From a virus (Duplodnaviria > Caudoviricetes): a DNA stretch of 64,000 nucleotides. The notes under the pieces were generated by a model. It was not told the DNA's origin. It ran no database searches and saw nothing but the letters and a program-made list of their open reading frames with translations. The stretch lies in the IMG/VR virus record IMGVR_UViG_3300011448_000001, positions 1-64,000 of that record; one strand, 5' to 3'. Below, piece by piece: positions 35,768-60,118 of this stretch; positions within the stretch are counted from its first letter, which is position 1; each line of letters starts with the position of its first letter. The translations under genes were made by a program, and so were the position numbers.

Positions 35768-35861
35768 ACCTGTGTTATGTACAATTAATTTAATAAGAGT
35801 TTTTGATAAACAAAATCAAGTTATAATTTTTATGAGAAAAAAATAAATTTTTTAAAGGTCG

Positions 35862-35933
35862 TACCCCCAGTACGATTCGAACGCACACTAAAGGGGTTAG
35901 AGCCCTCTGTGCTAACCATTACACCATGGGGGA
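35862..35933 (-). tRNA. Amber suppressor tRNA (anticodon CUA), tRNA-Gln-like
   Basis: Cloverleaf TCCCCCA TG GTGT AATGGTTA GCAC A GAGGG CT-CTA-AC CCCTT TAGT GTGCG TTCGAAT CGTAC TGGGGGT A. 1:72 mismatch; CCA not encoded. Confidence 0.92.
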
Positions 35934-44071: not shown

Positions 44072-44112
44072 ATTATAAGGGGGAGCTTGGACTCTCCCCC
44101 TTAAAAACTCAG

Positions 44113-44171
44113 CCAAGAAGAGTATAAAATAGTCACTGATGAGACTTGGACGAAACACAAATGTGTCTGAC
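44113..44171 (+). ncRNA. Type I hammerhead ribozyme
   Basis: Stem I GTCA/TGAC, core CTGATGA, minimal stem II G-C with loop ACTTGGA, GAAA, stem III CAC(A)/(T)GTG, cleavage triplet GTC (after 44167). Upstream CCAAG can pair with loop CTTGG. Confidence 0.8.
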
Positions 44172-44324
44172 GTGAATAGCCATATTTTTTATGATTATTT
44201 GTTTTTATTCATTCAAGGTTAGATTGTAGCATTGAATTGTAGTAAAATTCGTGAGAACTGTAGCTACATTATTTGGATTCGAAGACTCAAATGTAACCGT
44301 TCGTGAGAATAGTTACATTTATTT

Positions 44325-44408
44325 GCCTTTATGGCGGAATTGGTAGACGCGAGGGACTTAAAATCCCTTGTCCAGTTGGACGTGCAGGTTCGACTCCTGT
44401 TAGAGGCA
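44325..44408 (+). tRNA. tRNA-Leu (UAA)
   Basis: GCCTTTA...AGGGA CT-TAA-AA TCCCT, long variable arm, GCAGG TTCGACT CCTGT TAGAGGC A. Confidence 0.92.
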
Positions 44409-44742
44409 CAACTTGTTGAATTGTCGTAATTTTAAATTGTATTGACTGAAAAGTATACATACTTTCAGTAAACAGTGGCTTCGGATGAAAGACCGTGGCA
44501 TTTTCTTTATGCATTTTTTGTGAAGGGGTTTTTCGGTTTTCTTTAATCTTAAAGAAAATGGAAATAACTCTGACTGATATTAAAAAACTCAATAACATCC
44601 CAAGACGTTGAGGGCACCGGTTTCTTGTTTGTAGCACAGATTATCTACCTATATAGATTACATTAGATGTAAAAGCTATAATAAACAAGTTTTAGGTGTA
44701 AAACGCGAGTTAATTAACATTATAAACAAAAACATTATCAAA

Positions 44743-48480: not shown

Positions 48481-48499
48481 TACTTTATATCGAATGTTT

Positions 48500-48830
48500 A
48501 CATTTGACCCTGTAAGCATTCACAAAAAAAGGATCGCTTGAGTGTGATGTAAATATGCAAGACGAGGGTTCGACTCCCTCTAGCTCCACAAAACCAATCA
48601 AAAAGGCAAGAATCAAAACTCTAAAAATAGGCACCTACTAGGAGACAGCCCACTTGGTGTAGAGAAGCACATTTTGATTGGTTCTATATAAGGGGCTATA
48701 TGGCATTTGATTGCATAGGAGATAAACACGAGATCAACATAAAAACAAACGACAATAGTAATATTGTTGACTATACTTGCGTAGCGTAAGTAAATGTCTG
48801 AGGTAGCTGTACCAATAACCGAAAACAGCA
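48500..48830 (+). ncRNA. ssrA: Circularly permuted (two-piece) tmRNA
   Basis: 3' piece TATGCAA GAC GAGGG TTCGACT CCCTC TAGCTCC A (48554-88) precedes 5' piece GGGGCTA TATGGCATTTGA TTGCATA (48692-717). G3:U70 pair present. Tag frame 48745-89 reads TNDNSNIVDYTCVA*. Outer boundaries approximate. Confidence 0.85.
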
Positions 48831-48831
48831 A

Positions 48832-48882
48832 GGAGAGATTGGATAAGGTAACACTTAAAGAGTTCGAATCTCTTTCTCTCCT
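48832..48882 (+). ncRNA. Minimal tRNA-like element C directly after the tmRNA coding piece
   Basis: GGAGAGA-19 nt-AAGAG-TTCGAAT-CTCTT-TCTCTCC-T. Confidence 0.6.
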
Positions 48883-50115: not shown

Positions 50116-50673
50116 ATGGAAAATCGAAAAAATATAACGCAAGAAGAGATTGACCTTATCAAAAGAGCACAAAGCGGAAGCATTTCTGCATTTAACCAGA
50201 TATTTTATAAATACAAATATTTTGTAGAATCTATTCTCTTATCATATATAAAAGATAAAGATGAAGCGCGAGATATCACAAATATTGTATTTTGTAAAAT
50301 ATACGATAAACTACCAAAATTCAAAGAATACAACTCGTTTGGTGGTTGGTTAAGAATCTTAACAAAAAATACTGCTATAGATTATCTACGTACAGTAAAA
50401 GTAAATTTCACAAGTATAGATGACGAAGAGTCTGATATTCAATTAGAAACAGGTGAATCTGAAGAAGATTTGGCCAATCTTCTAACGTTTGATTACGTAA
50501 GAGACATTATATCTAAAATGGATTCAACAAAACGTCAAATCTTTACAATGTATTATGTAGATCATCACACAATTAGTAGTATATCTAAGCGTTTATTGGT
50601 ACCTGAAGGAACTATTAAGTCTCTTCTATATAGGTTCCGTAAACAAGTTTTTAAACATTTAAAGTTAAACTGA
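50116..50673 (+). CDS. ECF-type RNA polymerase sigma factor
   Basis: LIKRAQSG..SAFNQIF, EARDITNIVFCKIY, SFGGWLRILTKNTAIDYLR (region 2); ISKRLLVPEGTIKSLLYRFR (region 4). Confidence 0.9.
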   Translation: MENRKNITQEEIDLIKRAQSGSISAFNQIFYKYKYFVESILLSYIKDKDEARDITNIVFCKIYDKLPKFKEYNSFGGWLRILTKNTAIDYLRTVKVNFTSIDDEESDIQLETGESEEDLANLLTFDYVRDIISKMDSTKRQIFTMYYVDHHTISSISKRLLVPEGTIKSLLYRFRKQVFKHLKLN

Positions 50674-51133: not shown

Positions 51134-52606
51134 ATGGGAAAGAATAAGAAGACAACAACTGCAAAGAATAATGCAACACAAACTCAGCAGAAACCTGTTG
51201 AGAATAAAGTAGATAACAAGCAGGAGACACCAGAGGTACCTATAGCAGAAGCTCAGGTGATTGATCACAACCCAATGGTATCTGGTATGATTAACGAAGC
51301 AATGGTAGCTCCTCCATCTGGAAAGTCGTTGTCACCAGATGCAGCAGCAATGCTTGCGTATACTATGCAACGCAAATTCTTTGACGATCCTAAGTCAAGA
51401 GACCGTTATCCGCAAACGTTCTTGGACAACATGTCAGCGGTACAAGACGGTCTGATAGTAGGAACTATTATTCAGGAGGTTGTAACAACAAACAGCCCAC
51501 TGTCTCTAATCATTCGTAAGGGATCTTACAACCAGCTTCGTGCAATTGCATCAGATTATGGTGTGAAACTGCCAGAAGTTAACAAGCTTGCACTTCCTAC
51601 TAAGGAAGAGCTTAAGGCTATGGAAGCTTTTGGTATTACACAGACAGATGACGGTCAACTTAAAATTCCATTTACACCAGAAGATGTAGATGATAACACA
51701 AAGAAGCAGATCGCTCACGAAGAGAAAATCCGCAAAACAGAGGTTGAAATGGATCCTAAGAAGATCACAACCGACGAACAAGCAGCAGCAGCTCTTGAGA
51801 AGATTTATGCAAATCGAAACATCAAAGGCGGTATTCATGTAGTATTACTTAATGCAATTCATTTCGTAAAAGAATATCGTTTTGCTGAGGCTGAACGTAA
51901 GAACGATCAGAACATGTGTTGCGCTCTTGAGTCACGCACAATCAACGATTGGCTTGTAGATACTATTAGTATCAAAGAACCACTGTTGATCCTTAAGAAC
52001 GTAACTGCAGCTATGTGTAGAGCCGTTGAAAAGACAGAAGCACCTATAAGTGCATTCTTGTCATTCCGTAGTGCTATCACAAAGGATGGCGTATGCCCAT
52101 TGTCTGATACAGAAATTGCAGCAATGGTTAAGGCACTTATCTCTTGGTATGTTGAGTTTATGTGTGCAGAGTACAATTCTCAGCTTACTTCTTCTAAGAA
52201 GATGACTCAGAAGACAAAAGAGACCGTTCAGGAAGCTCTTGAGACTCTTAAGGAGGTTAAGAAGAACCTGACAGAATTCGATACAGAAACTATCGAAAAG
52301 ATGCCAGATCCAACCACAGCAGAATCTGATGCAAACACAAAGATGTTGTATTACTTCACAAGATCTCAGTATTTTGCAAAGGATTGCTCCGGCAAGAAGA
52401 GTCCTGAGACATACTTCACAAACCTTAAGTACAATGTGTGGAATAAGATTGCAGAAATTGCGAACATGTTCCTTACAGAATCCAACCAGATTGAGGATAT
52501 GGGAGATCAGAATATCCTTGACCTGGAAATAGCCAATCAGGAAAATAACGACGAACCTGGTAACGAAGGTACGAAAGAAGATACAGGAGAGACAAAAAAA
52601 AACTAA
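51134..52606 (+). CDS. Large early hypothetical protein (490 aa)
   Basis: Long ORF without TAG; ends in an A9 run (A AAA AAC TAA). Confidence 0.8.
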   Translation: MGKNKKTTTAKNNATQTQQKPVENKVDNKQETPEVPIAEAQVIDHNPMVSGMINEAMVAPPSGKSLSPDAAAMLAYTMQRKFFDDPKSRDRYPQTFLDNMSAVQDGLIVGTIIQEVVTTNSPLSLIIRKGSYNQLRAIASDYGVKLPEVNKLALPTKEELKAMEAFGITQTDDGQLKIPFTPEDVDDNTKKQIAHEEKIRKTEVEMDPKKITTDEQAAAALEKIYANRNIKGGIHVVLLNAIHFVKEYRFAEAERKNDQNMCCALESRTINDWLVDTISIKEPLLILKNVTAAMCRAVEKTEAPISAFLSFRSAITKDGVCPLSDTEIAAMVKALISWYVEFMCAEYNSQLTSSKKMTQKTKETVQEALETLKEVKKNLTEFDTETIEKMPDPTTAESDANTKMLYYFTRSQYFAKDCSGKKSPETYFTNLKYNVWNKIAEIANMFLTESNQIEDMGDQNILDLEIANQENNDEPGNEGTKEDTGETKKN

Positions 52607-52773
52607 TGACGGGTACTTCTCGTGCCTTAGAGAAGATAACTGCCCATTTAAAGGCAACCCACACGTCTTTTACGAAACCAAAATCTGTAATAGTACAATT
52701 CGTCAGAAATGTATCTTCTATGACCCAAAAAGTCCTAGGAGTACAGAAAATAGAGTACGTAGGAGATAATTAA
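52606..52773 (+). CDS. 55-aa ORF in the -1 frame (coupled gene or frameshift extension)
   Basis: TAATG overlap; MTGTSRALEKITAHLK...YVGDN*. Confidence 0.4.
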   Translation: MTGTSRALEKITAHLKATHTSFTKPKSVIVQFVRNVSSMTQKVLGVQKIEYVGDN

Positions 52774-52786
52774 AATCATTATCAAA

Positions 52787-53176
52787 ATGAAAACACTAAA
52801 AACAATAATGTGTGCTGCGTTATTAACATTCGGATGGATTGTTGGTACACATGACGACACATCATTAAAAGCAGAAGATCCACCAGACTTTAATTTTACG
52901 ATACCTGTAGATTTTCAGGCATCGTTTCTGAAAAAGACTGTGGAAAGTCTTACTAAAGAACTTGAAAGTAATGCACGGGTCGATACCGTGATAGTAAACA
53001 AAACAAAACACGTGAAGGTTAAGGTACCTTATCGTGTAGTAGAACGTGACACTTCGTATGTGCCCGTTGTACTCATTATAACACCTGGGAATCGTAAAGA
53101 GCATATCCCTGATAGCATACCAACGCTACCAAAACACGATAGTTGCTCTCATGACAGTATAGATACGTCTATATGA
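52787..53176 (+). CDS. Exported/membrane-anchored hypothetical protein (129 aa)
   Basis: Signal-like N-terminus; preceded by CATTATCAAA. Confidence 0.65.
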   Translation: MKTLKTIMCAALLTFGWIVGTHDDTSLKAEDPPDFNFTIPVDFQASFLKKTVESLTKELESNARVDTVIVNKTKHVKVKVPYRVVERDTSYVPVVLIITPGNRKEHIPDSIPTLPKHDSCSHDSIDTSI

Positions 53177-55203
53177 GGCTAAGGAGGTTAGGATGGAGAT
53201 GTATTTAAAAGCTTTGCGCTTTATACATTCTCCTGCCTAGCTGCCATGTCATTTGAGTGCGTTAAGAGAGTCTCATTAGCTCAGGCACGAAAAAATATCA
53301 AAACTTGATCCAAGAATATGTTAGCTTACCATGTAAGTGAGATACACAAAAGGTAGGATGGAAGACATTGAAATGTGAAAAATTTTAATGTATTAGGGAT
53401 AGCGTTTGTATTTCAACCCTAACATTTAGTATATGAGAACCGTCTGGCGATATACTATCTAAGAAAAACGCGTAAGTCTTCAGAAGAAGCAAAATGAAAC
53501 CGTATCGGAAATCTATATAATGAGGTATAAGTATAGAAGAACGAAACACGAGTTGCAAATCATCATATTCCATACATGATGATATACCTTAAATCGCTTA
53601 TGTAGTGTTCCACAGCTCCAAACTGTGTAAGAAGGCAGAAAATACCTAAAAGTAATAGATAAAGAACAGAGACTGTAAGAATCTACTTACAGCTATATCG
53701 TAAATATAGTACTTAAACTTAATCCTTGCCGTTAGATTCGGCACAACTCAGTTGAATGGGTGGCAGTGATCAGGTATAGTGTATGTTGAAAATGTTGCTC
53801 ACTATTATGAAATAAGTGACCGCCAGCCCTTGGTCGTTCATGCGGGATATAAAAGTAGAATGACAAGATCGAGAAGGTACTCGATGTAGGACGAACCCTA
53901 CAGTTTCAAAGAGTGTACTAAAACACTGATTGGAAGATAAGTAAGAGAAGATTAGCGAATCTCAAACTTTGAATTAAGAAATGGTGACTCCATGACAGTC
54001 AAAAATAAAAATATAACTAATGCATTCGAGGTATATCATTCCAGATATTACGGACCTGCTTAGTTCTCTATTATGTTGCAACTTATATGAAATACGCCTC
54101 CGAATTAGAAAGGTTGTAGTGAAATACACGATTCGTGAACTATTCGATGCCACGATGGTCGTCCTGCTATTAGAGATATAAGTATGAATATAATGACATC
54201 ATAGGAGATGGTTTTAGTAATTTTCCATTCAAAAAAATCTTAGGAGTAGTAAGCCTAAAAACCAAGTTATTAACAAAATTATATATTCGGTTCGATTTCT
54301 GTATATTCTAACGCATATTGTAGATGTGAAATATATGGTAAACCAAAAGGATATATGAGTGCCAACCGTTATGAGCAAAAGGTTGTATCAAGTAAACTAA
54401 ATGACAGCAAATCTTTAGGTAAATTGAACAATGCAGCTATACTATTACACATACTCGTCCATACTGTCTCTATGGAGGAGGGTGCGGAATCTCAGTGTAA
54501 AAGCGTATGAGTAAAGCTATGTGATGTACTCGGTTAGAATCCGACTTATTCGTGCACTATAAACAAAAAAAGACCTCGAAAAGGCTACAATGGGTGTCTT
54601 GAAAAATTAGACAATTGTAAAAACTCAGTAAAGAGTAAATCCGACAAATCAATGAAACCTCTGAAGTGGAGATATTGTCGTTAATTAACGTACTCCTCAC
54701 GTTTGTACAAAAAGTAGGAAAAGTAGTTTTGATTGATTGTTCTTTTACTACAAAAATACCTTACGTCGAAATAATAAGAACAGGGGTAGCTTTGCCTAAT
54801 TCGGTATCGCAAGACCGGATAACAAAAGCAACATACTATAATCTACTCAGCACTGGAACTCTCCGCGATGCTTGGACACATCAGAGCCTTTGACGGTAGA
54901 TTAGGTATACAAAATTTACACAAAAATTTATAGTAAGCTAAAGTAGTTGGTCACTTGAATGTGAAATACACAGAAACACGTTTGTAATTTTTATACTCTG
55001 ACGCGCAGCCATAAGTCGTGGACGACGAGTACAAAAAACGAGCTCTCATAAGCACGCTTGAACGTAATTGTATTAGATAACAACGAAAGAATAGCAACGA
55101 CAACAAACAAACCCAATATGGCGTCGGGGAACGGCCTTACTGTTCCCCGCATTTTAATAACTTTCGTGGTGAATCAATCGCGAAATCAAAAAGGAAAATT
55201 ATT
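53177..55203 (+). ncRNA. 2-kb hairpin-dense non-coding tract (candidate large ncRNA)
   Basis: No credible ORF; more than 20 short inverted repeats seen by eye. Strand is inferred from the flanking genes. Confidence 0.5.
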
Positions 55204-55815
55204 ATGACAGAAGTAAATGTAAAAATCCAGGAAAAGAGCCGCAAAGTAATTGCAGCATACGGTCAGGTATTCGGCCATCAGTTATTCACTGTACGTCAGT
55301 GTAATGTAGATAACAAGTATTATGACAAGAAGAACAATGCTGCAGATACAGGTATGCTCGTTCCACATCGCCCGATTCGTCGATACAAAACTCAGCGAAT
55401 CGATGTAACATCTTTACGGCTTCGTAAGGATATTGATGGTACTCTTACCATTGTAATTAACGAGTCACTTAAAGACGATAATGGCAACAGCCTTGAGATT
55501 ATCCGTCCTATCGAGATGCCTAAGTTCAACGTAGAACCTACTACAGAGAACATTCAGAAGGCTATTGAGGCTAATACAAGCGGTTCTGGTGAGCCATTGT
55601 ATTTCAGTGACATTAACAAGCTTACTGAAGCTGTTAACCGCGCAAACACAAACGAGATGTTACGGGCTAAGAATCTCCTGGAGGACATCGAAGGACAGAT
55701 TCGCTGCATAGAACAGACAATTGAGAAGGATACTCGATATGCTATTGAGTATCGTAAGGCTCTCGGCGAGACTGACGATGTTACAATTAACACAACCGTT
55801 AAAGTTGAGGTATAA
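55204..55815 (+). CDS. Hypothetical protein (203 aa)
   Basis: Long ORF with high-expression codon usage. Confidence 0.75.
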   Translation: MTEVNVKIQEKSRKVIAAYGQVFGHQLFTVRQCNVDNKYYDKKNNAADTGMLVPHRPIRRYKTQRIDVTSLRLRKDIDGTLTIVINESLKDDNGNSLEIIRPIEMPKFNVEPTTENIQKAIEANTSGSGEPLYFSDINKLTEAVNRANTNEMLRAKNLLEDIEGQIRCIEQTIEKDTRYAIEYRKALGETDDVTINTTVKVEV

Positions 55816-55817
55816 TT

Positions 55818-56393
55818 ATGGCAAATCGTCTGACACAAGCAGACGCATTGATTGTAAGATATTTGCTTGAAGACCCACTAATAAGGAGTGTTCTTGTAGA
55901 TAACTCTAAAAAAGAAGTATTCAAACGCATCGATATAAATACAGACGGTTCAATCACGCTAGGGAAGACCTCCATTAAGTGGTGGAATCGACTGCTTAAC
56001 GATGAAAAGAATATTTCTTTCAATGAGTTTGCTTTAAAAGTCACCGATAAAATATCGGGACAGAAAAACAACACAAATGAGAAATTACTTAATGGGTTAC
56101 TTGAGGTTATTGCCAAAAAAGGTATAAAAAATCAGGATTATTCATATGTAATCGATCAGTTGTTAATAGCAGCAAAGTTCGGAATGGACGGTCCGCTTAA
56201 ATGTAAATGTATGGATCTTAATAATAATGACAGAGACCCTGTAGAAAATAATAAAGGTCCACGCATTCGCAAAGCAAACTTACAAGGTCGTTCTGAACGA
56301 ATTCCCTTGAAATTTAGTCTCAATCCTTTTGGTGAGACAATAGATATAAATGCTCGATTAGTTATTGATGAAGATGGCTATGTAGAGCAATAG
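55818..56393 (+). CDS. Hypothetical protein (191 aa; TAG stop, read-through adds QYAA to TAA 56405)
   Basis: Complete ORF. Confidence 0.7.
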   Translation: MANRLTQADALIVRYLLEDPLIRSVLVDNSKKEVFKRIDINTDGSITLGKTSIKWWNRLLNDEKNISFNEFALKVTDKISGQKNNTNEKLLNGLLEVIAKKGIKNQDYSYVIDQLLIAAKFGMDGPLKCKCMDLNNNDRDPVENNKGPRIRKANLQGRSERIPLKFSLNPFGETIDINARLVIDEDGYVEQ

Positions 56394-56459
56394 TACGCAG
56401 CATAAGAAGATGTATAATAATGAGAAACCCTCATAACAAAAATACATCTTCTTATACAC

Positions 56460-56515
56460 ACCTCCTAATGGCAAACAATGACCTTGTTTGGTAGGTTCGA
56501 TTCCTACAGGAGGAA
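56460..56515 (+). ncRNA. Minimal D-armless tRNA-like element D
   Basis: ACCTCCT-AATGG-CAAACAA TGACC TTGTTTG-GTAGG-TTCGATT-CCTAC-AGGAGGA-A; preceded by a 14-bp hairpin (56402-56454). Confidence 0.6.
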
Positions 56516-56569
56516 CTAGGTAAACGAGTCTCAAATTCGTATGTTTAATCAATAAAAATTGTATAATAT

Positions 56570-57121
56570 ATGAATAAGAATAAGACTACATTTAAATCAA
56601 ACGACATTATTAATACTCGTGATAACATTAGTAAGAAGATTTCTTCTTATTGGAAGACAATTGAGGCTACAAACCTTATGTCTAATAAAGCAGTATCTTC
56701 AGGTATGCGTAAGTATGATCTGAAGGAGTTATATAACCAGATTACGCAGCTTGCTATTCATCGAGTAAAGTCAAAGCTCTTGCTTAATGCTATTAATAGC
56801 GGAATTAAGTCATTTACATTTAACGGTATTGAGAAGACTCATTACTATAAAATTTATATGCTTAATGAACTTCAGGAGCAGAAAGTACACATGATGATCA
56901 TTCAGTCTAAGCATACTATCAACCCTTCTGCAAAGGCAAAGGCCGGAAAGAAGGGAACTGGAAAGAACGAGATATTTAGTCATGCAAAGGCTGGTTCTAT
57001 AATCAACAATCTATCTATTAAAATAGAGGCGTTAAAAGCAGATATTAAGAAGTTTAACGATGATGCTACAATTGACATTGACACAACAAATGACAATTTT
57101 AAGCTTGAAATTTCAGCATAA
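56570..57121 (+). CDS. Hypothetical protein (183 aa)
   Basis: Complete ORF. Confidence 0.7.
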   Translation: MNKNKTTFKSNDIINTRDNISKKISSYWKTIEATNLMSNKAVSSGMRKYDLKELYNQITQLAIHRVKSKLLLNAINSGIKSFTFNGIEKTHYYKIYMLNELQEQKVHMMIIQSKHTINPSAKAKAGKKGTGKNEIFSHAKAGSIINNLSIKIEALKADIKKFNDDATIDIDTTNDNFKLEISA

Positions 57122-58216: not shown

Positions 58217-60118
58217 ATGAAACTCAAGAATAAAAATCTACATGTATATGATGTAGAAATTTTCCCAAATTGTTTTCACATAACTTCAAAAGATACAGAA
58301 AACAATAAAATATACAAATTTGAGGTATCTTGTAGAAAATTTGAATTAGACAAAATATGTGACTATTTTAAAAGTGACGCCATTTTTGTAGGATATAATA
58401 ATCATCATTATGATGATTTATTTATAAATTACATAATGGAATATCGAGATAGTATGATTCATCTAAGCTATTGGGATATTTGTAAGTCCTTATTTAATAT
58501 GTCACAGCTCATTATTAAAGAAAACGATGAGCCAAGTTACCTATTAAAACACTTCAAATATGCTCATTATTTTAAATCTATTGATTTACTTTCAATGTTA
58601 GCAAGTAAGAAATTACGTGTAGGATTGAAAGAAATGCAGCTTACAATGCATTATCAGAATGTATACGAATATGAAGGAGACTTTACATCGTATATTAATG
58701 AAAATGATATAGATACTATGATTGAGTATAACATAAACGATGTACTTTCAACAGAGGAACTCCTCAACCGCTGTAAAAAGGATTTGGAAGTACGCGAATG
58801 GATAGAGGAAGAATATGGTATTAATGCCTATTCAATGGATGGTGTAAAAATTGGAGAAACATTACTTGAAACTTTCTACATAAAAGAAACAAAAATTCCT
58901 AAGAAAGTATTAGAGTCAATGCGTTCTCCAATGGATATGATTCCTTTAAAGGATGTAATATTACCATTCATAAAATTTGAGAACCCAAAACTCAAAGAAA
59001 TTTTAGAAGATATGAAATCGCGTGTTGTATCTTCTAAAGAAAGAAAAAGCTATGAGAAGCAGTTTGTGCTCTCAAATGTGGAATATTCGGTAGGTATAGG
59101 TGGAATCCATAGTCTACACAAACCGGAGATTTTCAGACCTAAAAATGATGAAATAATTGGGCATGCAGACGTAACAAGTATGTATCCTAGTTTATTAATA
59201 AAACATCATTTACAACCAAAACATTTAGGTGAAAAATTTCGCAAGATGTATGAAAATATATACAACCAACGTGTTGATGCGAAACATAACGGGCAGAAGT
59301 TTAAAAATGAAACGTTAAAACTGACATTAAACTCTGTAACAGGTAAAATGCAACAAGAAGTAAGCTGGATGTACGACCCATTCAATGTCTTTCGTATTCG
59401 TATTAACGGTCAATTGATATTGTTGATGTTAGTTGAACGCCTATTAAATATTGACTGTAAGATAGTACAAGTCAATACTGATGGTGTAATGTACATTTGT
59501 AAAAAGTCAAATCAGAATGCAGTCCAAGATGCTATTCATGATGTCGAAAACATCACACAGCTTAATTTTGAAGTAGGATGTTATGAAGCGTTTTTTCAGT
59601 ACGCAGGAAACGATTATTTTGGGATACTCGAAGGTTATGGACTATCACATGACCCAAAACTGATAGAAAAGAAAGGAATGTTTATAGATGAAACTAAATT
59701 AGGTAAAGGGTTAGCTCCGACTATTATACCTAAAGCAGTAATGAATTATTTCATTAACAACATTCCTGTAGAACAGACAATAACTACTTGCACTGATATA
59801 CGTGAATTCTTTATAGGACAACGTGTATCAAAGGATTTTAAAGTTGAATACAAAGACAAACGTATACAACGAATAAATAGATTCTATGCAAGTACTAATG
59901 GAGCATATCTATATAAATATAAAGAAAACAATGACGGTACAAGACAGTATTTTAATATGCTGACTAAATCTGGTGTAACAATTATGAATAAGTTAGATAA
60001 CTTAGACATAAAAAATAAAAATATAAATTACCGGTATTATATATCGGAGGCAAATAAAATTATAACAGAATTACGTACCGTTCAACTTGATCTATTTAAT
60101 CAATTCGGTAACCTTTGA
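58217..60118 (+). CDS. polB: Family B DNA polymerase
   Basis: ExoI YDVEIF, motif A ADVTSMYPS, motif B KLTLNSVTG, motif C VNTDG. Confidence 0.92.
   Translation: MKLKNKNLHVYDVEIFPNCFHITSKDTENNKIYKFEVSCRKFELDKICDYFKSDAIFVGYNNHHYDDLFINYIMEYRDSMIHLSYWDICKSLFNMSQLIIKENDEPSYLLKHFKYAHYFKSIDLLSMLASKKLRVGLKEMQLTMHYQNVYEYEGDFTSYINENDIDTMIEYNINDVLSTEELLNRCKKDLEVREWIEEEYGINAYSMDGVKIGETLLETFYIKETKIPKKVLESMRSPMDMIPLKDVILPFIKFENPKLKEILEDMKSRVVSSKERKSYEKQFVLSNVEYSVGIGGIHSLHKPEIFRPKNDEIIGHADVTSMYPSLLIKHHLQPKHLGEKFRKMYENIYNQRVDAKHNGQKFKNETLKLTLNSVTGKMQQEVSWMYDPFNVFRIRINGQLILLMLVERLLNIDCKIVQVNTDGVMYICKKSNQNAVQDAIHDVENITQLNFEVGCYEAFFQYAGNDYFGILEGYGLSHDPKLIEKKGMFIDETKLGKGLAPTIIPKAVMNYFINNIPVEQTITTCTDIREFFIGQRVSKDFKVEYKDKRIQRINRFYASTNGAYLYKYKENNDGTRQYFNMLTKSGVTIMNKLDNLDIKNKNINYRYYISEANKIITELRTVQLDLFNQFGNL

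Follow-up and report, generated by a model that had tools for sequence, protein, structure and literature searches.

What does a bacterial virus keep in 2 kb of DNA that holds no gene? The question is raised by a tract at positions 53177-55203 of the window, by which we mean the whole 64,000-nucleotide (nt) stretch analyzed here (positions 1 to 64,000 of IMG/VR record IMGVR_UViG_3300011448_000001). An earlier note had proposed that this tract specifies a much larger structured RNA or a cluster of small RNAs. We found that proposal to be supported by synteny, length, covariation, and the lack of a coding signal, and not by the density of hairpins. The tract is very probably a real, conserved locus of structured non-coding RNA, and it is probably the gene, or a tightly joined set of domains, for one such RNA of about 1.9 kb made from the plus strand.

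The coding capacity of the tract was determined first from its reading frames. As the earlier note had claimed, there is no credible open reading frame (ORF): none longer than 75 amino acids (aa) was found under translation table 11, and a six-frame check with recoded stops (TAG as Q, TGA as W, TAA as Q) yielded nothing credible, the longest frames with reassigned stops (80-176 aa) lying on the minus strand or continuing into the next gene. TAA, TAG, and TGA are each dense in all six frames, both in the window tract and in 10 relatives. Between close relatives, the substitutions in the tract were spread evenly over the three codon phases (p 0.3-0.7), whereas those in the adjacent gene, taken as a control, were concentrated on third positions (p<1e-12). 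Since the tract is conserved and its substitutions show no codon phase, it is under selection, though not as a protein. Two descriptive statements of the earlier note also held, namely, that the tract is not AT-degenerate (G+C content of 36%, versus 30-42% in the flanks) and that the genes around it abut each other. The base composition of the tract is nearly constant among genomes (A, 0.35-0.38; C, 0.15-0.18; G, 0.19-0.21; T, 0.26-0.28). Public records of some relatives carry coding sequences (CDS) inside the tract (L001 5260-5766 and L009 8303-8785, both on the minus strand, and 13 small CDS within L003 7852-9860). These differ in strand, are not kept in the window, and are probably annotation artefacts, which holds a lesson for annotators.

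DNA and protein searches assign the window to a crAss-like phage of the family Suoliviridae, order Crassvirales, the closest annotated records being Bohxovirus, Chuhaivirus (cr130_1), Cacepaovirus (cr131_1), Buhlduvirus (cr272_1 and cr273_1), and Dulem virus 42. In all the Suoliviridae genomes inspected (ten annotated records of delta crAss-like phages, covering Oafivirinae, Loutivirinae, and one unclassified virus), a gap of 2.0-2.2 kb, unannotated or clearly mis-annotated, was present in the same place, bordered by a homologue of the small gene that follows a ~490-aa gene and by a homologue of the 203-aa gene that follows the tract. The locus appears to be kept at one place by the whole family. 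Part of the tract was matched in about 75 IMG/VR contigs; a search of IMG/VR for related loci with the downstream protein gave no match, and a DNA pattern derived from an invariant loop gathered 100 loci. Tract positions 94-691 showed 70-84% DNA identity between these phages, whereas the 490-aa flanking protein was only 22-27% identical between the same phages. In close relatives, the conservation of the tract versus that of the next gene was 0.93 versus 0.89, 0.86 versus 0.77, and 0.73 versus 0.80. The conservation is arranged in islands (53257-53560, 53700-53870, and 54310-54565), between which lie variable stretches with large lineage-specific insertions. Within the 5' core, the invariant blocks GAUCCGAGAAUAUGU, CAAAAGGUAGGAUG, UGAGAACCGUCUGG, ACGCGUAAGU, AACCGUAUCG, and ACACGAG alternate with short complementary stems that vary between lineages, and the central region has the conserved blocks UAGUGUU at 53603 and AGGGAUG at 53765.

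We then determined whether the variable stems keep their pairing, beginning with the 5' part of the tract, which is organized as follows.

53177..53256, plus strand: spacer after the upstream 129-aa gene, of low conservation (0.18-0.22), with a window-specific hairpin at 53195-53233.
53257..53288, plus strand: first conserved element, a two-part hairpin (53257-60/53285-88 and 53267-71/53279-83) with the loop UCUCAUUAG.
53299..53556, plus strand: 5' core domain (covariance model R1).
Helices of the 5' core: P1, 53308-11/53356-59; P2, 53325-28/53334-37; P3, 53365-73/53383-91; P4, 53395-98/53417-20; P5, 53429-33/53451-55, closing the invariant loop UGAGAACCGUCUGGNGA; P6, 53478-80/53487-89; P7, 53513-17/53532-36.
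Pseudoknot of the 5' core: 53402-05/53468-71, GCGU of the P4 loop with ACGC downstream of P5.
Invariant single strands of the 5' core: GAUCCGAGAAUAUGU and CAAAAGGUAGGAUG.

The stems of the first conserved hairpin covary in alignment A1 (GUGC/GCAC, GUAC/GUAC, GCAU/AUGC, and UGGG/CCCA), and RNAalifold returned the helices of this hairpin with 2 and 4 covarying pairs. For the 5' core, the seven nested helices were written onto a 13-sequence alignment, and the resulting model, R1, was searched against the 100 loci, giving 86 matches, a single one per genome save two in a 195-kb record. In the R1 alignment, both sides changed in all 34 modelled pairs, 89.6% of the cells were paired (35-47% with the partners slid by 1-3 columns), the covariation score was 0.625 (at most 0.12 in the controls), and the observed values were reached in 0 of 500 shuffles, figures that flatter the structure somewhat, since the alignment follows the model and phylogeny plays no part in the controls. 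The middle pair of the pseudoknot was CG 32 times, GC 12 times, UA 9 times, and AU 4 times. A pair flanking P2, 53324/53338, was G·U in 34 sequences and A·C in 15; these are isosteric wobbles, and their exchange is typical of RNA. Two further contacts were tried and not adopted. A closing helix CUUG/CGAG proposed by RNAalifold for the 5' domain is not supported, one-third of the sequences having AA or GG instead, and a kissing pair between UCUCAUUAG (53270) and the loop of P7, UAAUGAGG, which spans 8 bp in the window, is reduced to 4-5 conserved bp in the relatives, shows no covariation, and is speculative.

R1 had no significant match in crAss001 (Steigviridae), cr107_1 (Intestiviridae), or cr127_1 (Crevaviridae), one genome per family being searched. 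The double match comes from the IMG/VR record behind L055 (195,667 bases; rated complete by CheckV), where two non-identical copies of the 5' domain (72685-72928 and 170616-170865) lie ~98 kb apart; the record resembles a head-to-tail fusion of two related genomes.

The remainder of the tract, up to its 3' border structures, comprises the following elements.

53557..54300, plus strand: central region, with at least 10 more covarying helices (RNAalifold run in windows over 16 sequences aligned with plain MAFFT), among them 53600-03/53635-38, 53611-15/53623-27, 53692-97/53705-10, 53727-31/53739-43, 53833-43/53855-64, and 54132-39/54177-84.
54312..54418, plus strand: hairpin C (54312-16/54324-28, loop RUUGUAA), invariant UGCCAACCGUUA at 54360-71, and hairpin D (54397-404/54412-18, loop CRGCAA, with a conserved G·U pair); alignment A6.
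54459..54563, plus strand: hairpin A (54459-63/54471-75, loop CUGUCUC), hairpin B (54529-32/54542-45, loop UKGAAWU), and near-invariant AUAUUCGUGCACUAUAAA; alignment A4.
54564..55124, plus strand: 3' region, the most variable and with the fewest supported helices (54642-50/54671-79 and 54943-46/54953-56).

Alignments A4 and A6 are plain MAFFT alignments of two anchored sub-regions of the 3' half and were not fitted to structure. In A4 (39 sequences), hairpins A and B were 93.9% paired, versus 29-54% when slid, with a covariation score of 0.706 versus at most 0.15. In A6 (44 sequences, including more distant lineages), hairpins C and D were 91.6% paired, versus 21-59% when slid, and both sides changed in 12 of 12 pairs. 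Across the whole tract, the RNAalifold windows on the plain alignment of 16 sequences gave 55 helices of at least 3 bp. Two or more covarying pairs together with pairing of 85% or higher characterized 29 of them, ranging from 53257 to 55185, while column-shuffled alignments gave 2. Support is densest at 53257-54001 and 54312-54679 and thinnest at 54680-55120, where the alignment is poorest; the 3' region (54564..55124), where the window aligns poorly in the global alignment, is the least certain part. Base pairs in the tract are thus kept by compensatory change beyond both slid and shuffled controls, none of which models phylogeny. The supported helices are all local, with spans below 100 nt, and the design throughout is one of short stems presenting large sequence-invariant loops, which suggests that the loops rather than the helices are the functional surfaces. 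A scan for loop palindromes that change in concert from one palindrome to another, as would be expected of symmetric kissing dimers, found nothing clear. The hexamer AACCGU occurs three times in the tract (53438, 53498, and 54364), each time within an invariant block (GAGAACCGUCUGG, AAACCGUAUCGG, and GCCAACCGUUA), and 24 times on the entire 87-kb plus strand; it may be a repeated recognition motif.

Watson-Crick covariation does not separate the strands, and the reverse complement gave 28 helices. At fixed positions where A·C is all but absent, one pair (alignment A6) was GU 27 times, GC 8 times, and AU 6 times, with one exception, and another (R1 alignment) was GU 27 times, AU 14 times, and CG 12 times, with no exception. 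Overall, G·U outnumbered A·C by 118:62, but only by 105:79 under a criterion that ignores G·U in the choice of pairs. The fixed G·U pairs, the co-orientation with the genes, and a terminator-like hairpin on the plus strand together indicate that the RNA is very probably read from the plus strand. That hairpin and the structure that follows it form the 3' border.

55125..55159, plus strand: terminator-like hairpin CGGGGAAC...GUUCCCCG, followed by CAUUUUAAU (U run), from a terminator scan.
55156..55203, plus strand: operator-like element of the 203-aa gene, a hairpin with an AUCAA loop followed by invariant UCAAAAAGGA.

The terminator-like hairpin is the GGGGAAC/GTTCCCC stem of the earlier note; relatives have a hairpin at this position but do not keep its sequence, and the U run is present in only some of them. 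It is likely where the RNA ends or else a site of read-through pausing. Within the tract, neither a terminator nor a promoter stood out above shuffles on the plus strand. In cr131_1 the upstream CDS, as annotated, extends into the beginning of the R1 match, and the terminator-like hairpin of the window directly adjoins the operator of the next gene. Since there is little room for dedicated promoters, and in some relatives none on either side, the RNA is probably part of a long rightward transcript.

The AUCAA hairpin and UCAAAAAGGA are enclosed by an outer operator helix, whose 3' strand extends to the start codon of the 203-aa gene. Covariation was seen in both operator helices (27 distinct sequences), and in every lineage the corresponding model, R2, places the operator ahead of the gene's homologue. 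Known RNA-binding proteins, phage and ribosomal proteins among them, repress their own synthesis through operators of this kind. The 203-aa protein is a candidate RNA partner because a conserved hairpin operator wraps its translation start; that its partner is the RNA of the tract is a guess. Its AlphaFold model (predicted local distance difference test score, 75.5) consists of a small sheet and a 50-residue helix; the model had no Foldseek match at E<=0.001, its VIA-align Z was never above 3.4, and a profile search of the PDB with the protein gave nothing significant. R2 also detected a second operator copy within the 5' domain of Loutivirinae-type RNAs only (L007 8426-8465, L085 2270-2309, and L006 8504-8543). 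Operator mimicry within the RNA was rejected on this account, the internal copy being restricted to those RNAs and not found in the lineage of the window. A further good R2 match (35 bits) lies at L003 2539-2579, on the margin of a different gene-free stretch of the Dulem virus 42 genome.

Several observations weigh against a single, stably folded RNA. The earlier note had described the tract as packed with hairpins, and this does not exceed chance: single-sequence folding was no better than that of dinucleotide shuffles, the mean minimum free energy z-score in 150-nt windows being -0.28 on both strands of the tract, whereas the flanking genes scored more strongly (-1.6 on the plus strand and -1.2 on the minus strand). 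The note had itself named such z-scores as grounds for refutation, and formally that is the outcome. A stable RNA with a folding energy no better than that of shuffles is unusual. A search for long-range stacks gave 188 candidates, mostly promiscuous G/U-rich segments, none of them credible, and a putative single 2-kb fold is left without reliable domain-joining helices. The last ~600 nt of the tract are poorly conserved. To these points are added the fitting of the R1 alignment to its model and the narrower G·U excess when G·U is ignored in the choice of pairs. The RNA itself, its ends, and its strand are all inferred from sequence, the seven sequencing runs found for 52000-57000 of the window all being DNA runs, and the scaffold role considered below is an argument from analogy. 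Because the single-sequence folding energy is not above chance, the case for a structured RNA must rest on the comparative evidence; the unremarkable energy fits a design of short stems and large loops.

The individual stems and motifs singled out by the earlier note fared unevenly. TCCATA/TATGGA turned out to be the conserved covarying hairpin A, and ATCATCAT/ATGATGAT is supported, being 75% paired with both sides changing at 7 of 8 positions. CTGTAAG/CTTACAG, TCGAG/CTCGA, and TGTAGG/CCTACA appear by eye to covary, but a clean count was prevented by the misaligned window row in the global alignment. The stem GGAGATGTAT/ATACATTCTCC (53195-53233) lies in the unconserved 80-nt spacer and is not retained by relatives (34% paired). 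Relatives do not keep GGTTCGATT as a "T-loop-like" element; its GGUU is apparently the 5' strand of a covarying helix whose partner is AACC at 54341-44. The motif GAGCCTTTGA is absent from the conserved blocks.

The record containing the window is a viral contig of 87 kb, 86% complete, in which the element is present in one copy. The tract lies within a rightward gene block, in the same orientation as its neighbors, between the block of a sigma factor gene and the replication module.

50116-50673: ECF-type sigma factor gene, upstream of the tract (Pfam/PHROGs).
58217-60118: DNA polymerase gene, ~3 kb downstream of the tract.
Downstream of the tract, in the replication module with the DNA polymerase gene: genes for a DnaB-like helicase and a Sak4-like annealing protein.

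The "early region" to which the earlier note had assigned the locus is a guess. The direct neighbors are the 129-aa gene upstream and the 203-aa gene, then a 191-aa gene, downstream. Searches of Pfam and PHROGs with the flanking proteins yielded the sigma factor only, and comparison with the ESM Atlas gave low-confidence leads only. Elsewhere in the window, a RAGATH-1 hammerhead ribozyme (44106-44172, plus strand; 69 bits, exceeding the Rfam threshold) is followed 150 nt downstream by a tRNA-Leu(UAA) gene (44325-44409, plus strand), and the two may form a unit of ribozyme-assisted tRNA processing. A tRNA with the anticodon CUA (35861-35933, minus strand), an amber suppressor labelled Pyl by ARAGORN, fits TAG recoding of the late genes of this phage. 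In a second gene-free stretch, ARAGORN called a permuted transfer-messenger RNA (tmRNA) at 48499-48880 (plus strand). RefSeq has a tmRNA at the equivalent position in four relatives (L002 477-867, L004 3091-3460, L005 3314-3677, and L009 3534-3890), and Rfam at the gathering threshold did not report one for the window.

We then compared the tract with known RNAs. A cmscan search of Rfam, run over the window at the gathering threshold and over 52900-55500 at E<=10, matched no family to the tract, even at the latter cutoff, where it returned only two chance-level rows; the RNA thus matches no catalogued RNA family. The covariance models of GOLLD (RF01998) and ROOL (RF03087) had no match in the window or the tract. 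These two RNAs of unknown function (>800 nt and ~660 nt, respectively) come from phages and prophages, where they lie close to tRNA islands, and cryo-electron microscopy revealed them as RNA-only cages (PMC12286853). Like them, the tract is phage-borne and non-coding, has a covariation-supported multi-helix structure with a pseudoknot, combines conserved domains with variable linkers, and has tRNA genes in the same genome region. Unlike them, it is ~1.9 kb long, more than twice their size; it is not beside a tRNA island, the nearest tRNAs being at 44325 and 63736, 8-9 kb away; its position is constant in a family of strictly virulent phages; and it consists of short stems with large invariant loops and unremarkable folding energy. 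OLE RNA (ornate, large, extremophilic) is a bacterial RNA of ~600 nt that serves as a ribonucleoprotein scaffold (PMC3413148). A large structured RNA working with dedicated proteins encoded next to it, as OLE does, is by analogy the model that we favor for the tract, which is unrelated to OLE in sequence (no Rfam family was matched, OLE's included if it is in the library). Literature searches found no published description of this Suoliviridae RNA. An ORF-free stretch noted in passing by Yutin et al. 2021, with emphasis on the Zeta group and without an RNA interpretation or covariation, is probably of the same kind (PMC7886860).

We lean towards one RNA rather than several. The strongest rival is a cluster of separate smaller structured RNAs (e.g., a 5' one of ~300-800 nt and a 3' one of ~300 nt) that are co-transcribed and then cut apart. 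The arrangement of the conservation in islands, separated by variable stretches with lineage-specific insertions, would suit such a cluster, as would the strictly local helices, none credibly linking one island to another. Yet the total length is held at 2.0-2.2 kb in all genomes, the order and spacing of the blocks are fixed, and no internal terminator or promoter rises above shuffles on the plus strand; variable linkers between conserved domains are found in GOLLD and ROOL as well (PMC12286853). We consider the cluster possible but unlikely. Still less probable is a giant cis-acting leader rather than a trans-acting RNA, the tract then serving as the structured 5' untranslated region of an operon that starts with the 203-aa and 191-aa genes and continues to the replication genes, whose expression or timing it would control. 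The tract is oriented with that operon, leaves no room for a promoter before the next gene, and ends in 50 nt of conserved operator at that gene's start. However, the operator alone would suffice for translational control and is preceded by a terminator-like hairpin, and 2 kb with dozens of conserved helices and invariant loops far exceeds the needs of any known leader.

The same pairing could also belong to DNA. Structured transcripts can prime replication, as RNA II of ColE1 does, and, with the genes for the DNA polymerase, helicase, and annealing protein 3 kb downstream, the tract might be a replication origin, a single-stranded DNA hairpin site, or an origin primed by a structured transcript; covariation by itself would be the same for folded RNA and single-stranded DNA, and the reverse strand gives as many helices. 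Against this, the cumulative GC skew, which the earlier note had proposed as a check, turns near 38 kb and 67 kb and not at the tract, weak evidence in that phage skew also follows the direction of transcription. The composition is even, without an AT-rich unwinding stretch, no iterons or repeats were noticed in the sequence, and the position-specific G·U pairs, the pseudoknot, and the G·U/A·C isosteric exchange are typical of RNA. A DNA-level element is therefore very improbable, and protein genes that are decayed or unconventionally expressed, through introns, frameshifts, or recoding, are hardly conceivable. The latter idea draws on the recoding, the introns, and the short-ORF regions of both polarities for which crAss-like phages are known (PMC7886860), on the CUA suppressor tRNA of this phage, and on the CDS that annotators have put in the tract of some relatives. 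It is opposed by the density of TAA, TAG, and TGA in every frame of 11 genomes, by the lack of codon phase in the substitutions, by the absence of any Rfam intron, and by the finding that the ORFs annotated in relatives are not kept in the window while the flanking genes are complete. A group I or group II self-splicing intron was rejected, there being no Rfam match at E<=10 and the flanking genes being complete and separate in all relatives. An antisense regulator of the phage's own genome was rejected likewise, the best complementarity in the 87-kb genome (34 bits) equaling that of the best shuffle.

For the structured RNA of ~1.9 kb, we tentatively propose the following course of events. 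The RNA would be made within the long rightward transcript and then released by processing or partial termination. It would adopt a multi-domain, "ornate" fold held by loop-mediated tertiary contacts and not by long stable helices, which would explain its unremarkable folding energy. It would then act in trans as a scaffold, forming a ribonucleoprotein with phage proteins, for which the product of the next gene, the 203-aa protein, is a plausible partner, or assembling with its own copies like GOLLD and ROOL. A trans-acting scaffold that assembles with neighboring proteins or with itself is our best guess at the function, offered by analogy and doubtful as yet. It is likewise possible, and no more probable, that a single ~2-kb RNA machine forms a particle required for infection, together with the adjacent small conserved proteins or by itself.

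If the tract is one RNA of ~2 kb, it would be, to our knowledge, the largest structured non-ribosomal RNA known in a bacterial virus. The size range of the known "ornate" phage RNAs would then be more than doubled, and structural biologists would have a new large natural RNA to fold. Its anatomy, with invariant loops, covarying stems, a pseudoknot, and an adjacent translational operator, makes the question testable once transcripts or a cultured host are at hand. The Delta group comprises the most abundant crAss-like phages of the human gut (PMC7886860), and an RNA of ~2 kb that is kept by all their sampled members, and is in places better conserved than the neighboring proteins, should be central to infection.

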